Source of the DNA: Methanosarcinales archaeon
Lineage (GTDB): Archaea > Halobacteriota > Methanosarcinia > Methanosarcinales > Methanogasteraceae
Reading direction: 5' to 3'
DNA length: 57,190 nucleotides
Assembly (NCBI GenBank): GCA_030604085.1
Contig: JAUVWP010000001.1
Coordinates: 1-57,190, forward strand
Part shown: positions 51,207 to 56,362 of the stretch, in pieces
Position numbering within the stretch: position 1 is the first letter of the stretch
Layout: each line of letters begins with the position of its first letter
Notes under the pieces: generated by a model
What the model was told of the DNA's origin: nothing
Seen by the model: only the letters and a program-made list of their open reading frames with translations
The model's database searches: none
Position numbers and translations under genes: made by a program

Positions 51207-51485
51207 GTGTGCCGAGCAAAATTCGCTATCCAGCTGGTGAAAATCCAAGCCTCTATGAAAAGTTAGCCACCACCTCAGAACTAACTGTGAGGGGGCTCAT
51301 AGTAACCTCGGAGCCGAGAATACGACAGGAGGTGCAGTTATCGAGCTCTACTCGACATTACACGAAAGTGATTCGTGCGATTCGCCCAAACATGTGCATT
51401 CGTGTTTGATACAAGCACCAGAGCCAAGTCAACAGTCCTATAAGTGCAAGAAGGTTTATGTGATTATACTGCTCATGATTGCATT

Positions 51486-54011
51486 ATGATTAGAGGGCTG
51501 CATCTGCGCAGAGTTTGTGTTGTGGTCTTTGTGTACGCCTCATTGCTACTACTCATGAGCGGTGCATCGGCACTGGAGGCGAGAGCGGGCGATGATCAGA
51601 CTGTATCACCGGGTACCATGGTCGAGCTGGATGGTTCGGGCTCAACTGGCACCGGCACATTGACCTATAACTGGACCGAGGGCAGCACCGTACTAAGCGT
51701 CCAGGAATCCTTCAGTCACGAATTTTCGATAGGCACACACACAATCACGCTGACAGTATCAGACGGCACCAGCAACGACACCGATACCATAGTCGTGCGT
51801 GTGAACCAGCCCCCGGTTGCAGATGCAGGCGATGACCGGGTCATACTACCTGATACGTACATCAAACTCGACGCATCCGGATCCAGCGATCCTGACGGCA
51901 AAATCGAGTCTTACAAGTGGACCGAGGACGGGGTGGAACTCAGCACCAGGAGATCGTTTAACAAGATCTTTGATGCCGGAAGACATGAGATCACGCTCAG
52001 CGTGACCGATAACGATGGTGATACAGGAGAGGATACCCTCGAGATCCTGGTCAACTGCGCACCGATCGCAGACGCGGGACCTGACATGACCGTACCGGAA
52101 GGGACGCTTGTTCACTTCAACGCAACCAATTCCAGCGACCCTGACGGCAATACCCTGTACTATGAGTGGAAGGAGGATGGCGTCGGCATCCTCAATCTTG
52201 CGCAATCATTCGATATGGTTCTCCCGATCGGCACGCACAGCATCATGCTGACCTTGACCGATGGATACGGGGCAACTGCTACTGATAGGGTGGCAATCGA
52301 GGTCACCGCGGTGGACCAGAAGCCCCCGATAGCAGATGCGGGATCCGATCAGGCAGTGCTCATCGGAACCGCTGTCGTGCTGGATGCATCCGGCTCCACA
52401 GATCCGGACGGCGAGATCGTGAAATACGAATGGCTCGAGGACTCTGCCGTAATCAGCGAATCGATGGTCTTTGAGCATATATTCCCGAAAGGAGTGAATC
52501 ACATAACGCTCAGAGTGACCGATAACGATGGCGCATCAGGTACGGATGACGCCACGATCACGGCACGGTCGAGCATGGTCATGCCCGAGGCAGACGCTGG
52601 CGCGGACCGCGATGCACTCGAGGGAACAGAGATCATACTCGATGCATCCCGCTCAAGCGGGGAGAACCTGACCTACCAGTGGATTTTAAACGGCACCACC
52701 ATCTCAGAGGAGCGGATGTTCTACCATCTCTTCGATCCTGGCACGTACACAGTCACGCTCAGCGTGACCGATGAGTATGAATGCACCGCTACCGATGAGG
52801 TCAGTGTCGTGATCACCACACCCTCAGTGGGCGGGGGGACAAGTCGCATACCTGCGATGCCAGAGGTGTCCCAGACCCGCGGATTATGGTCATATCTTCT
52901 GGCGGCGATTGTTCTGATACTGGTGCTTGCAGGCATCGTCTTCATACGTCGGAGATCCGCCACCACCAGATCCACCGGAACCGCTTACGGATATAAATAC
53001 AAGGAGTATACGCCCCCTCCTGATAAGACTGGAAGCAAGTCCGGCAAACCGATCGTCAAACCCGATCCCAAACCTGCTACCAAAACCGCTACCAAACCCA
53101 ATGCCAGAATTGTACCGCCAGAACCGAAACCCGTGCCAGTGCAGCCAAAGGTCCTGATGAAGGTGAAGGTACTCGATTCCGCGTCGAGAATGCCGGTACC
53201 GGGCGCGGCGGTGCAGACCGGATCAGCCACTCAGAAGACCGACGCTCTAGGAGAAACGATGTTCACACTGGATCGTGGCGGGCAGCGCACGGTCAGCGTA
53301 AGCGGCATCCCGAACCTGTACGAGGGTAGAACTGCCTCTGTGGACGGGGATAATGCAACGATCCTGTTATCATCGACAGTCCGCCCTGATCAAGAACAGG
53401 ATGCAAGATTGCGCTCCGTCAGGGAGGCGTTTGAGAACCGGTATCGTGAGGTATCAGGTTATGATCGGTGCATTTCTAACTTTTACCGGAGTGTGGCACA
53501 GCGTTTGATCGAATATGTACGCGGGATGACGGCAATACATTTTATACGCGGGAAGGCGGGACCGAAAGAGGTGACTGATCAGATGATATCGGTCATCGAG
53601 TCTGTCTGCACGGAACTATCCGAGATCATGGTCTCCAAACGAAATATTGACCTGTACGCACGAAGCAGAGCGGGTAACGAGAACTCAGCTGGATGCAACG
53701 CAAGCCAGATCAGCTACGATCCGCTCTCAGACCTGATAGCGAGTCCGCCCGGATTCGTACCGGCAACCAGTCCGAAGGTGGAGCAGGCGCTCCTCGAGAT
53801 CGACAGGGAGATCACGTCGAGGACGCGGGATATGAGCGTACTCCCGATAACCGGGGTCTGGTCGATTGCAAAAAGTTTGCTTGCGGATCAGTCAGGAGAC
53901 GATCTCGAACATGCGATACGGATATTGATCGCAGATACTCTACTTATGTATGCAAAGGAGATGTATGAAAATCCTGAAATTGTGAAACGAATGAAACAGG
54001 GGATACTATGA
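51486..54011 (+). CDS. Type I membrane protein: signal peptide, 5 PKD-like domains, one TM, a Pro/Lys-rich linker, a beta-sandwich-like segment and an unrecognised helical C-terminal domain
   Basis: The ATG at 51486 opens MIRGLHLRRVCVVVFVYASLLLLMSGASALEA. Five repeats follow the pattern AD(A)G.D..V..GT.V.LD(A)SGS.DPDG.I..Y.W......(S)...F...F..G.H.ITL.VTD. The TM segment is LWSYLLAAIVLILVLAGIVFIRRR. The tail ends ...ITGVWSIAKSLLAD...EMYENPEIVKRMKQGIL. Confidence 0.8.
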   Translation: MIRGLHLRRVCVVVFVYASLLLLMSGASALEARAGDDQTVSPGTMVELDGSGSTGTGTLTYNWTEGSTVLSVQESFSHEFSIGTHTITLTVSDGTSNDTDTIVVRVNQPPVADAGDDRVILPDTYIKLDASGSSDPDGKIESYKWTEDGVELSTRRSFNKIFDAGRHEITLSVTDNDGDTGEDTLEILVNCAPIADAGPDMTVPEGTLVHFNATNSSDPDGNTLYYEWKEDGVGILNLAQSFDMVLPIGTHSIMLTLTDGYGATATDRVAIEVTAVDQKPPIADAGSDQAVLIGTAVVLDASGSTDPDGEIVKYEWLEDSAVISESMVFEHIFPKGVNHITLRVTDNDGASGTDDATITARSSMVMPEADAGADRDALEGTEIILDASRSSGENLTYQWILNGTTISEERMFYHLFDPGTYTVTLSVTDEYECTATDEVSVVITTPSVGGGTSRIPAMPEVSQTRGLWSYLLAAIVLILVLAGIVFIRRRSATTRSTGTAYGYKYKEYTPPPDKTGSKSGKPIVKPDPKPATKTATKPNARIVPPEPKPVPVQPKVLMKVKVLDSASRMPVPGAAVQTGSATQKTDALGETMFTLDRGGQRTVSVSGIPNLYEGRTASVDGDNATILLSSTVRPDQEQDARLRSVREAFENRYREVSGYDRCISNFYRSVAQRLIEYVRGMTAIHFIRGKAGPKEVTDQMISVIESVCTELSEIMVSKRNIDLYARSRAGNENSAGCNASQISYDPLSDLIASPPGFVPATSPKVEQALLEIDREITSRTRDMSVLPITGVWSIAKSLLADQSGDDLEHAIRILIADTLLMYAKEMYENPEIVKRMKQGIL

Positions 54012-55951
54012 AGATTATAACAATACTCGTCATCGCACTGATTGCCGCGCTCTGTATCGGGGGTATGAACACGGGTGGTGCGGCTGCTGCTCCTGACGAT
54101 CCTGATGACCCCGATGCGCCAGATGCGCCGAACAGACCACCTACCACCACACCTGCCACTTCACCGGCTGCTGCACCGGTTATCGCGCCGGATAGAGGGG
54201 GGGCCGATGCAAGCGGGACCGGGAGTATCGATGATGATACGGTCGTAGATGCCGCGAATGCAAACCGGGTACTGCTCGATTACTCGATCGATACCATCGC
54301 TGTGGTCTCGATGGGTGCGGAGAACTACTATGTCGTCAGTTACAAAAACGTCGTCTGCGGGAGGGGTATCGAGATATTCACAGACGATGGTGCGGTTGTG
54401 ACCGATGCATCGATCGTCGATGGCGTTCTTAAGGCGGCTGCATGGAGGGATGCAGCAATGAAACTCGATCCTGATGAGATCAGTGCCATCAAAGCCCTTG
54501 TGGGGTCGCCGCAGGTGATTGAAAAAACCCGCATCAGCCTGATCACATCATGTGACTCGCTTGATGTGCTGAGCAATGATATCGCAAGTTCGGATGTTGC
54601 GGATTATGGGGTGCTTTCCACTTTTGGTGAGCGATTTTTAGAGGTGGACGGGAAGATGGTGGAGATGGTAAATGGAACCGGTTTTTTCTTAGGCGATCTG
54701 ACAGAGCATCAGAGAACGATCTCAGACATCGTAGACGAGGCGAACAGCACCAAGAAATCACTATACAAGGATTGGACGGGGAGAGACAACGCTAAAAATC
54801 GTGTTTTCGGGACGCTTGTACTGATCGTTATTATATTAATGGCTGCAACCTCGCTGATACTTATGAAATCGAAGGATAAGGAACTATCTATTAAAAAACG
54901 TGCACACAAACTCTTCGAAAGGAAAAAAGAGAATATCATCGATCAATTGCACAGCCGCGATGCTGACGAGCGTGCCAGATCCGCTCTGATGGCTGGCGCG
55001 TCCGCAGAGGTTGATGAAACCATTATTCCGCATCTGATCGTGCTCCTCGACGACGCCGATGATCGCGTTCGCGCCAATGCCGCGCAGTCGATCAGGCGCA
55101 TCGGACAGAAGAACAGCAACCTTGTGCAGTTCGCAAAAGAGCCGCTCAAACGCCATCTCGACGATCCGAGCGATAAGGTGCGAGATGCCATGACGCAGGC
55201 GTATCAGGTGGTCTGGGGCGAGACTGTAGATGCGGTGGAAATGGCAGGGAACGTGGAGGCGGTAGAGGCGACAGAAGTGGCAAAGGAGCCAGGGGCTGTC
55301 GAATCTGCTGTTGTAACGGCGGAGGAGCCGGAAGAAGAGATTGCGAAAGCCGCGCTTACCGATGCACAGCAACGACGCCTCCATGAACTGAAACATCGGG
55401 TAAACCAATCGATAAGCAACCTCCCGGTAGGATGTGATCTCTGCATCCCGCACTATCTCCTGAGCATCTGCACCACAGTTGCCGATATGGTCGGGCACGC
55501 AAAGGGTGCGGACAGCGAGATGATCGATGAGATGATCGATGCCAGCGAGATGACCTGTAAATATATTGCGGATTTGATAGAGAATAGCAGATTTATTGAC
55601 ATCTGCATCTCAAAGAACATGGGCGCGTTCGACGATACCGGGTTTGTAGCAGGAGCCCGGGAATATTCGGACAAATTGGATGCCCTGATCAGCGATCCGC
55701 TGGGGTTTGCAGATTCACTGAATATGGAAGAGGAACTGTGGGCGGTGGATAGCGCGATCACAGGGAAGATGGGCGAACTGATGATCATACCGATATCCGG
55801 GCTGTGGAAGGTGTCAAAAAGTGTTTTCGATGATGCATCCGACGAATCAGGGACCAAACGCGCATTCATGGTCATGATATCACTGGTCATCCTTGGAAGA
55901 ATACGCGAGATGATGGAGAATCCCGAGATCGTCAGAAGGTTGCGGTTGTAA
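54008..55951 (+). CDS. Single-pass membrane protein: Pro/Asp/Thr-rich N-terminal stalk, unknown ectodomain, one TM, HEAT-like repeats and the same C-terminal domain as the upstream gene
   Basis: The ATG overlaps the upstream stop as ATGA. The signal or TM segment is MKIITILVIALIAALCIGG. The second TM is VFGTLVLIVIILMAATSLILM. The HEAT_PBS-like segment is LLDDADDRVRANAAQSIRRIGQ ... LDDPSDKVRDAM. The tail ends ...ISGLWKVSKSVFDD...EMMENPEIVRRLRL. Confidence 0.8.
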   Translation: MKIITILVIALIAALCIGGMNTGGAAAAPDDPDDPDAPDAPNRPPTTTPATSPAAAPVIAPDRGGADASGTGSIDDDTVVDAANANRVLLDYSIDTIAVVSMGAENYYVVSYKNVVCGRGIEIFTDDGAVVTDASIVDGVLKAAAWRDAAMKLDPDEISAIKALVGSPQVIEKTRISLITSCDSLDVLSNDIASSDVADYGVLSTFGERFLEVDGKMVEMVNGTGFFLGDLTEHQRTISDIVDEANSTKKSLYKDWTGRDNAKNRVFGTLVLIVIILMAATSLILMKSKDKELSIKKRAHKLFERKKENIIDQLHSRDADERARSALMAGASAEVDETIIPHLIVLLDDADDRVRANAAQSIRRIGQKNSNLVQFAKEPLKRHLDDPSDKVRDAMTQAYQVVWGETVDAVEMAGNVEAVEATEVAKEPGAVESAVVTAEEPEEEIAKAALTDAQQRRLHELKHRVNQSISNLPVGCDLCIPHYLLSICTTVADMVGHAKGADSEMIDEMIDASEMTCKYIADLIENSRFIDICISKNMGAFDDTGFVAGAREYSDKLDALISDPLGFADSLNMEEELWAVDSAITGKMGELMIIPISGLWKVSKSVFDDASDESGTKRAFMVMISLVILGRIREMMENPEIVRRLRL

Positions 55952-55973
55952 ACGAGATAAAATAGGTGCTGAC

Positions 55974-56252
55974 ATGTCACAGGAAAAGAACACGATCGAG
56001 GAATACGATGCGATCTTAAAGGAGGTCAGGGAACTGATGGTCGCAAAGAATGCGGATTATGGGGATTCGTGGAGAGAGATGCGACTCCCGTCAATAATAG
56101 ACCAGATACTCGTTAAAGCATACAGAATACGCAGCATTGAGGAGTCGGAAGGATCTCCAAAGGTTTCCGAAGGTATTGAGTCCGAATACCGGGATATCCT
56201 GAATTACTGCGTATTCGCGCTGATAAAATTACGCGACAAAAAAACGGCATGA
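55974..56252 (+). CDS. DUF1599-family protein
   Basis: 92 aa. KNADYGDSWREMRLPSIIDQILVKAYRIRSIEES matches the DUF1599 signature as I recall it (DYG.aWr..r..sl.DQi.iK..RIrsi). An AGGTG SD lies 6 nt upstream. Confidence 0.65.
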   Translation: MSQEKNTIEEYDAILKEVRELMVAKNADYGDSWREMRLPSIIDQILVKAYRIRSIEESEGSPKVSEGIESEYRDILNYCVFALIKLRDKKTA

Positions 56253-56362
56253 GCGAAACGGAGCAGGGACGCTACAGCATCTTATGCAGCATCGGCAGCA
56301 TTCTTGCGGTGCTCTGGGGCGGGCATTGATCGAGACCTTGATATGTGCAGCGTCCTAAGCTG

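Follow-up and report, generated by a model that had tools for sequence, protein, structure and literature searches.

To our knowledge, next to nothing is known of the proteins with which archaeal members of the tubulin superfamily, FtsZ excepted, interact or by which they are anchored to the membrane. Divergent tubulin-superfamily paralogues ('Halo.Tub', CetZ-like) have been described in Halobacterota (Methanosarcinia and Halobacteria), where they occur 'in a quasi-tandem disposition' among 'unknown genes' (Santana-Molina et al. 2023, PMC9871819), and 'non-canonical TSF proteins' are merely listed by Brown & Duggin 2023. SepF is presented as the archaeal anchor of FtsZ (PMC8178401), while the FtsZl1 operons, which combine a divergent tubulin-superfamily protein with membrane-associated proteins and were predicted to function in membrane remodelling, are defined by a context of vWA proteins, protein kinases, a GTPase and OmpA-like proteins (Makarova & Koonin 2010, PMC2875224). 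Here, we analyzed two overlapping genes, A and B, in a stretch of 57,190 nucleotides (contig JAUVWP010000001.1, assembly GCA_030604085.1; hereafter the window) from an ANME-2c-like, methane-oxidising archaeon. Their products are transmembrane (TM) proteins that end in the same undescribed domain, the tail, and genes encoding this tail are found in other archaea as part of a gene cluster with two tubulin-family genes.

The tails of A (residues 639-837) and B (residues 452-646) share 29% identity and 50% positives (BLASTP, E=5e-22), a similarity far beyond chance. An earlier note on this stretch, made from the DNA letters alone, had proposed homologous helical tails of about 230 amino acids (aa); the homology persisted as a significant pairwise alignment, while the length was revised to about 207-225 aa. 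A word-indexed protein search reached only close relatives even with a 30-sequence profile; when 1.84 billion representatives were instead scanned in full with a HMMER profile, 132 family members were identified at E<=1e-3, 63 of them at E<=1e-10. Against the resulting family model, A and B gave E-values of 2e-65 and 7e-50, and both carry the family motifs D..IP.YY, KRN.D, D..I, P....W and RL. In A numbering, the conserved positions are D660, P664, Y666/Y667, M715, K718-R719-N720-x-D722, D773, I776, P787, W792, L820 and R835-L836, the polar ones among them being D660, K718-R719-N720-x-D722, D773 and R835. In 127 of the 132 members, no more than 10 aa separate the tail from the C-terminus, and a hydrophobic segment precedes it in 99 of 105 long proteins.

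An AlphaFold2 (AF2) model of the tail built with 30 diverse family members consists of about ten helices and reached a pLDDT of 95 and a pTM of 0.92, compared with a pLDDT of 72 when 8 sequences were used. Foldseek found no match for the better model in the PDB (best E 0.065, TM-score about 0.2) or in BFVD. No Pfam family was detected in the tail at E<=1 in A, B or 10 distant members, nor in any of 52 sampled members, and searches of NCBIfam, PADLOC and PHROGs, as well as of PDB sequences by phmmer or with a 30-sequence profile, were likewise negative. The assertion that the tail belongs to no named family therefore held across all of these collections, and the tail is a real, undescribed domain with a confidently predicted fold that lacks a solved relative. 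BAR, F-BAR, PhoU and designed bundles, which headed the Foldseek output, resemble the tail in being all-alpha bundles, but with E-values of at least 0.065, TM-scores of about 0.2 and a root-mean-square deviation above 20 A they were rejected as matches, and a phmmer hit to Translin-associated protein X (E=0.48) was regarded as noise.

The family has a recurrent domain order of a variable ectodomain, one or more TM segments, a CarboxypepD_reg domain and the tail. In ten distant members the ectodomain comprises, variously, PKD domains, WD40/PQQ propellers, S-layer domain PF07752 or Big_2, and one or two CarboxypepD_reg-type sandwiches, sometimes PEGA, SpaA or HEAT, precede the tail; a CarboxypepD_reg domain was found ahead of the tail at E<=1e-3 in 39 of the 52 sampled members. 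Two apparent stand-alone tail proteins of 284-285 aa (P0001, P0002) were dismissed as assembly artefacts: a scaffold gap of 100 N (L001:3516-3615) interrupts gene A in the linker region, and the L002 contig is a palindromic (hairpin) misassembly in which the A tail and the start of B occur twice, inverted. The domain family is thus new and comprises, at 50% identity, 132 clusters or more, whose members are now labelled 'hypothetical', 'PKD' or 'HEAT repeat' protein.

Distant members of the family also share a genomic setting, as their genes recur near two PF00091 (Tubulin/FtsZ GTPase) genes with unannotated genes between and around them. All seven non-ANME-2c tail genes that were looked up adjoin tubulin-family genes (L004; L005/L006; L038; L039/L040; L041; L042; L043). 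All-against-all BLASTP defined six protein families in this cluster, namely the tail proteins, TubA-like, TubB-like, C475, C330 and C680 (Table 1). A large cytoplasmic domain together with TM segments is found in just two of them, the tail proteins and C475. The tail itself is not akin to any of the other cluster proteins (hhalign against C475, C330, C680, TubA and TubB, at most 2% probability). The tubulin-like proteins are divergent: the haloarchaeal-type pair of L039 scores 46-48 bits against PF00091, six tubulin-like proteins reach 33-88 bits with the FtsZ equivalog model (cut-off 295), the best PDB match of TubA-like has E=7e-5 to entries deposited as FtsZ, and TubB-like has no match in the PDB. 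Nevertheless, both retain the GTP-binding GxGxxG/GGGTGxG and the T7-like xIDxxD motifs, which suggests that TubA-like and TubB-like may form a heteropolymer.

The association was also evident in the reverse direction. With TubB-like as the query, metagenome contigs yielded 44 loci with two gene orders. In the first, halo-type order (TubA..C475-TubB-TAIL-C330-C680), each of the 18 loci that extend for at least 3 kb downstream has a tail gene right behind TubB; in the second (TAIL> <C680 <C330 TubA> C475> TubB>), such a gene stands beside C680 in four of five loci. Many clusters hold a single tail gene. The cluster contigs (L004, L038, L039, L042, L043, L044-L087) range in guanine-cytosine (GC) fraction from 0.31 to 0.71 and include brine metagenomes, and TubA-like proteins of L060-type group with proteins from 'Ca. 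Hydrothermarchaeota archaeon'. Next to the cluster, a second, convergent and conserved block was observed in two haloarchaeal-type lineages of tail proteins, L005/L006 and L039/L040 (L005:7824-14070; L039:13416-19658), but not in the remaining ones. It encodes a PQQ/CARDB protein of 950 aa, a 540-aa AAA ATPase and a pair of unannotated proteins of about 220 and 360 aa.

Two contigs of Methanosarcinales connect the A-B pair of the window to this cluster. In L042, C475 and TubB-like are followed by a protein of 860 aa with five PKD repeats and a tail and by a HEAT and tail protein of 690 aa; in L043, TubB-like is followed by PKD and HEAT tail proteins of 838 and 615 aa, whose genes overlap by 4 nucleotides (nt), and then by C680 and C330 on the opposite strand and TubA-like. 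The A-like protein of L042 shares 36% identity with A over 865 aa (E=2e-160) and the B-like protein of L043 shares 29% identity with B over 605 aa (E=1e-68), including the otherwise unplaced ectodomain of B, so that full-length orthologues of the pair are located directly after TubB-like. The TubB-like proteins of this lineage cluster at 90% identity with proteins named 'Methanosarcinales archaeon'. Because L042 and L043 carry orthologous, coupled A and B genes, the duplication and coupling of the pair predate the split of these Methanosarcinales lineages. On this comparison of sequences, A-B is best described as a displaced membrane-subunit pair of the cluster, which in ANME-2c appears to have left the tubulin neighbourhood. 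The sole exception among ANME-2 relatives was seen in MAG AUK006 (metagenome-assembled genome, MAG; L020:4515-7948), where a divergently oriented tubulin-family gene lies just upstream of A-B. Its product is a canonical tubulin-family protein of 369 aa (PF00091, 100 bits) with the N-terminus GLGQCGNRI and a CetZ-like look, and it is accompanied by a CARDB/NPCBM_assoc membrane protein and an open reading frame (ORF) of 275 aa; with a single locus of this kind, the proximity may be a coincidence.

Conservation of A and B as a pair was assessed with one genome per GTDB species, which gave 31 loci whose titles include Ca. Methanogaster, ANME-2 cluster, ANME-2c and Methanosarcinales MAGs, and on this basis the window is regarded as ANME-2c-like. 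In the window, A ends with ...ggg ata cta tga and the ATG of B is located at 54008, confirming the ATGA overlap of 4 nt given in the earlier note. B follows A with the same overlap wherever the contig permits, in about 24 ANME-2 loci in which A is 51-96% and B 55-95% identical to the proteins of the window; an apparent split of the two genes over contigs of one MAG was due to a contig break within B. Outside this group, the 4-nt overlap occurs also in L043/L044, the two genes abut in L042, and L038, L063 and L064 again contain paired tail genes. The homologues were thus always adjacent where both were visible, and the functional linkage proposed for the coupled pair is supported by the conserved start/stop overlap. 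From this coupling and the recurrent tail-gene pairs, we infer that A and B act together. The archaeal A-B pair, together with the ANME-2 type PurT, SprT and FG-GAP neighbours, was also found in L028 (MAXT01000189.1), titled 'Desulfuromonadales bacterium C00003107', which is probably an ANME-2 contig mis-binned into the genome of a syntrophic partner. Upstream of A, a CoaBC gene is present in the window and most close relatives; Ca. Methanogaster E20ANME2 instead encodes a 991-aa protein with a Y2 transposase domain at this site (L013:4728-7703), which indicates a local rearrangement beside the pair.

Table 1 Features of the A-B locus (positions in the window) and protein families of the two-tubulin cluster.
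Feature	Coordinates	Strand	Residues or length	Description	Basis
Gene A	51486..54011	+		Type-I membrane protein: PKD ectodomain, TM, linker, beta-sandwich, tail	ORF list, Pfam, orthologues
A signal-peptide-like N-terminus	51486..51581	+	aa 1-32	MIRGLHLRR, hydrophobic core, ALEA	Hydropathy, sequence reading
A ectodomain	51582..52823	+	about aa 33-446	Five PKD repeats	Pfam
A TM helix	52884..52946	+	aa 467-487	Followed by RRRS (positive-inside)	Hydropathy 2.9
A linker	52947..53156	+	aa 488-557	Putatively cytoplasmic, low-complexity, P/K/T-rich	Sequence reading
A beta-sandwich	53157..53387	+	aa 558-634	CarboxypepD_reg-like by homology	
A tail	53388..54008	+	aa 635-841	Predicted all-alpha C-terminal domain	BLASTP, profile, AF2
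Gene B	54008..55951	+	647 aa	Signal peptide, stalk, ectodomain, TM, HEAT, acidic linker, tail	
B ectodomain	54230..54802	+	aa 75-265	Fold unplaced	Alignment A4
B TM helix	54803..54865	+	aa 266-286	Followed by KSKDKELSIKKR	Hydropathy
B HEAT repeats	54935..55219	+	about aa 310-404	Putatively cytoplasmic	Pfam
B tail	55328..55948	+	aa 441-647	Paralogue of the A tail	BLASTP, family HMM
DUF1599 / Nmad1 gene	55974..56252	+	92 aa		Pfam PF07659
TubA-like			407-465 aa	Soluble, tubulin superfamily	
C475			475-704 aa	Two N-terminal TMs and cytoplasmic body	
TubB-like			415-446 aa	Soluble, tubulin superfamily	
Tail protein(s)			variable	Ectodomain, TM(s), beta-sandwich, tail	
C330			309-343 aa	Signal peptide and C-terminal anchor	
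C680			671-927 aa	Signal peptide, Ig-like domains, C-terminal anchor	

Pfam, hydropathy and BLASTP substantiated the common layout that had been noticed in both products, namely a signal region, an ectodomain, one TM, a linker, a middle module and the tail (Table 1); signal peptides and TMs were called from hydropathy and sequence reading rather than with a dedicated signal-peptide predictor. The five PKD-like repeats seen in A are a bona fide PKD array (PF18911/PF00801), with PKD_4 reaching 182.9 bits (cut-off 27, E=1.1e-54) and K319L-like_PKD E=1.1e-39, each over five stretches. Likewise, the HEAT-like repeats seen in B are bona fide, since residues 310-398 exceed the gathering scores of HEAT (PF02985, 32.0 bits, cut-off 23.5, E=1e-7) and HEAT_2 (PF13646, 31.4 bits, cut-off 27.7, E=2.3e-7). 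PKD and HEAT are generic building blocks and uninformative on the shared tail, the defining feature of these proteins, and weak hits of the B repeats to CLASP_N and TBCD-ARM (E about 0.06) were discounted as generic HEAT cross-matches that do not indicate TOG- or CLASP-like tubulin binding. The ectodomains are unrelated, as had been stated, and outside the tails no segment of A and B aligns in BLASTP. The segment of A described as beta-sandwich-like has no direct Pfam match to CarboxypepD_reg (PF13620) at E<=1, and in the A-like orthologue P0009 the match is weak (19 bits, cut-off 32.3), but it aligns by BLAST to the CarboxypepD_reg domain of P0010/L038, which itself passes the Pfam threshold (36.7 bits).

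In B, the signal peptide is followed by a PDDPDDPDAPDAPNRPPTTTP stalk, and this acidic stalk is limited to the closest relatives of the window (alignment A4). The B ectodomain, for which neither Pfam nor a PDB profile search gave a match, is conserved in the orthologues of ANME-2 and L042/L043 as a LDYSID..ENYYVV.YKN..G.GI core and a subsequent helical part. In both A and B, basic residues follow the TM. Together with the signal peptides and the HEAT repeats, the positive-inside rule would place the ectodomains outside and the tails inside the cell. The signal peptide of B (54008-54091) ends in ANME-2 orthologues with a conserved Cys, after which come G/A and then an acidic residue (LCIGG, PCAGD, LCTGE); this motif is absent from L042 and L043 and is not a canonical lipobox. 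The start codon of A is ambiguous, as the protein comprises 841 aa from ATG 51486 and 855 aa from GTG 51444. The latter start would extend A by MQEGLCDYTAHDCI. Comparison with P0007 (MQAQEGLCNHTNHDCIM) and L001 shows that the added amino acids are conserved, albeit with substitutions, so that the region 51444-51486 may be translated or may be a conserved leader.

With somewhat less than even confidence, we favour the reading that A and B form a heteromeric linker across the membrane, with tails that dock to a cytoskeletal system of tubulin-like proteins. It starts from what was observed directly, namely the homology of the tails and their family, the conserved coupling of A and B, the association with the cluster in other lineages and the orthology of A and B. 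As translationally coupled, paralogous type-I membrane proteins with different surface ectodomains, A and B would assemble via or beside their tails into a hetero-oligomer, the flexible linker and the beta-sandwich or HEAT spacer would hold the tail off the membrane, and the tail would dock to a tubulin-like polymer or its adaptor, thereby coupling envelope or extracellular contacts to a cytoplasmic filament system. In its succession of TM, flexible linker (P/K/T-rich or acidic), spacer and globular tail, the layout is like that of a filament tether kept at a distance from the membrane, and heteromerisation of A and B is presumed from their pairing. The earlier note had seen here a heteromeric surface module with an undescribed shared domain, for sensing, adhesion or scaffolding; for A-B this view is upheld, and because of the membership in the two-tubulin cluster it can be narrowed to a putative cytoskeleton-coupled transmembrane linker.

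Several observations speak against this reading. Docking of the tail to a tubulin-like polymer or adaptor has gene neighbourhood as its sole basis, and the tail shows no similarity to known FtsZ or tubulin binders. By tblastn, neither a TubA-like nor a TubB-like gene was detected in the window or in 33 ANME-2-type loci, and C475, C330 and C680 were not detected there either, leaving only the tails and, as the one exception, the canonical tubulin-family gene of L020; the tubulin link would thus have to apply in ANME-2c to a pair lying away from tubulin genes. L051 represents a full cluster but for a tail gene, which is lacking within 4.4 kb, and in L054-L057 (GC 0.30-0.34) a TubB-like gene stands alone, with none of the remaining families of the cluster; the cluster can fragment, as in ANME-2c. 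Finally, CarboxypepD_reg-type sandwiches are usually extracytoplasmic, which casts some doubt on the topology, and this doubt is greatest for the multi-TM haloarchaeal members, in which hydropathy counts between one and five TM segments.

The preservation of A-B as a unit across ANME-2, in changing neighbourhoods without tubulin genes, would also be expected of a self-contained heteromeric surface module for adhesion, matrix or S-layer organisation, in which the tail is a mere homo- or hetero-oligomerisation domain and which in ANME-2c no longer relies on a cytoskeletal partner. The recurrent pairs of tail proteins, the adhesion-type ectodomains of the family (PKD, propellers, S-layer, Ig-like) and the surface proteins encoded downstream in some ANME-2 lineages (FG-GAP+dockerin, dockerin+peptidase C10) agree with this explanation. 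However, it leaves the fixed tail gene in the two-tubulin cluster of Halobacteria-like, Hydrothermarchaeota-like and Methanosarcinales lineages unexplained, and the single tail gene of many clusters implies that hetero-pairing is not required, and we consider it unlikely. Distinctly more improbable is a transmembrane receptor pair, in which an external ligand or contact is perceived by the ectodomains and the tail acts as signalling output by binding a small molecule or regulator: ectodomain, single TM, linker and conserved cytoplasmic domain do resemble bitopic receptors, and D660, KRN-x-D 718-722, D773 and R835 could form a binding pocket, yet Pfam, NCBIfam and the PDB yielded no known signalling output domain similar to the tail, the neighbourhood lacks a conserved gene for a kinase, response regulator or transcription factor, and the conserved partners are instead cytoskeletal and envelope proteins.

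That the DUF1599 (Nmad1) protein works together with A and B as a three-gene system, as the earlier note had suggested, is hardly credible. Its gene does start 22 nt past the stop codon of B on the same strand, with the anticipated Shine-Dalgarno-like motif (aggtg) ahead of it, its product is a clear match to PF07659 (100.1 bits, cut-off 25, E=8.6e-29), and the order A-B-DUF1599 is kept in all close relatives whose contigs reach far enough. However, DUF1599 follows B only in loci in which A is at least 81% identical (Ca. Methanogaster), so that the adjacency is confined to one genus. A different gene follows B in every locus of the 51-62% group: PurT-like ATP-grasp, SprT-like and FG-GAP+dockerin genes in four loci, and in the others a PilB3-like ATPase, a vWA protein or dockerin+peptidase C10. 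Furthermore, DUF1599 was found in none of the tubulin-cluster loci examined, and in L013 and L030 it is followed by the same block of genes, encoding a protein of 149-172 aa, a HAD-like protein and PcrB. Because DUF1599 is replaced in the 51-62% loci, A-B represents the conserved unit and DUF1599 local synteny, which effectively excludes it as a component of the system. The 149-172-aa gene between DUF1599 and the HAD-like gene in L013 and L030 is not present in the window, where an ORF of 26 codons (56250-56330) overlaps the DUF1599 stop codon by ATGA. A defence system was rejected, as PADLOC gave no match for A, B or DUF1599, and a phage origin is unsupported, as PHROGs gave none for A or B.

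As a broader proposal, which we put forward tentatively and regard as rather unlikely, the tail would be the membrane-proximal docking module of an uncharacterised, heteropolymeric tubulin-like cytoskeleton that is coupled via bitopic proteins to surface modules. If this were true, such a cytoskeleton would span Halobacteria-like, Methanosarcinales and Hydrothermarchaeota lineages, with PKD, beta-propeller and S-layer-type surface modules, and would be what integrin- or LINC-type coupling of the outside to the cytoskeleton is elsewhere, in an archaeal form. The biology of ANME-2c depends on cell-cell contact, and in these archaea the system could position or sense cell-cell contacts within methane-oxidising consortia; the analysis flags a conserved surface pair, PKD plus a novel ectodomain, in this contact-dependent group. 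The tail is a concrete, testable candidate for connecting an archaeal filament system to the envelope, and the six-family cluster is amenable to deletion or tagging in those haloarchaea or Methanosarcinales that can be cultivated.

Among described systems, the TubA-like and TubB-like proteins are very probably the same pair as 'Halo.Tub', judging from the description in PMC9871819 and not from phylogeny. Paired tubulins with uncharacterised neighbours match the cluster, but the accompanying genes, the tail family and its place in the cluster are not described there, the window itself has no tubulin gene, and the 'non-canonical' or 'Halo.Tub' paralogues have so far only been catalogued. The cluster shares with the FtsZl1 operons a divergent tubulin-superfamily gene among genes for membrane-associated proteins; identity with an FtsZl1-type operon was rejected since the defining vWA, kinase, GTPase and OmpA genes are not conserved members of the two-tubulin cluster, whose tubulins, moreover, match PF00091 directly and keep T7-like motifs. 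Literature searches found, in the collection covered, nothing that joins tubulin with carboxypeptidase-regulatory or PKD/HEAT membrane proteins, or ANME-2c with CetZ. SepF, ZipA and FtsA families were absent from the Pfam, NCBIfam, PDB and Foldseek output for A, B and the tail model. ZipA consists of a TM, a P/Q-rich linker and a C-terminal FtsZ-binding domain. The likeness of A and B to ZipA, FtsA and SepF is one of function, in that a bitopic protein would keep a tubulin-family polymer at the membrane through a globular cytoplasmic domain on a flexible, low-complexity linker; it is an analogy rather than membership, with filament binding only putative. In contrast to these anchors, A and B add large ectodomains and would couple the outside to the inside of the cell, beyond tethering. 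What is new relative to all of these systems is thus an undescribed domain family and an unanalysed gene cluster, which point to a putative coupling of the cytoskeleton to the membrane.

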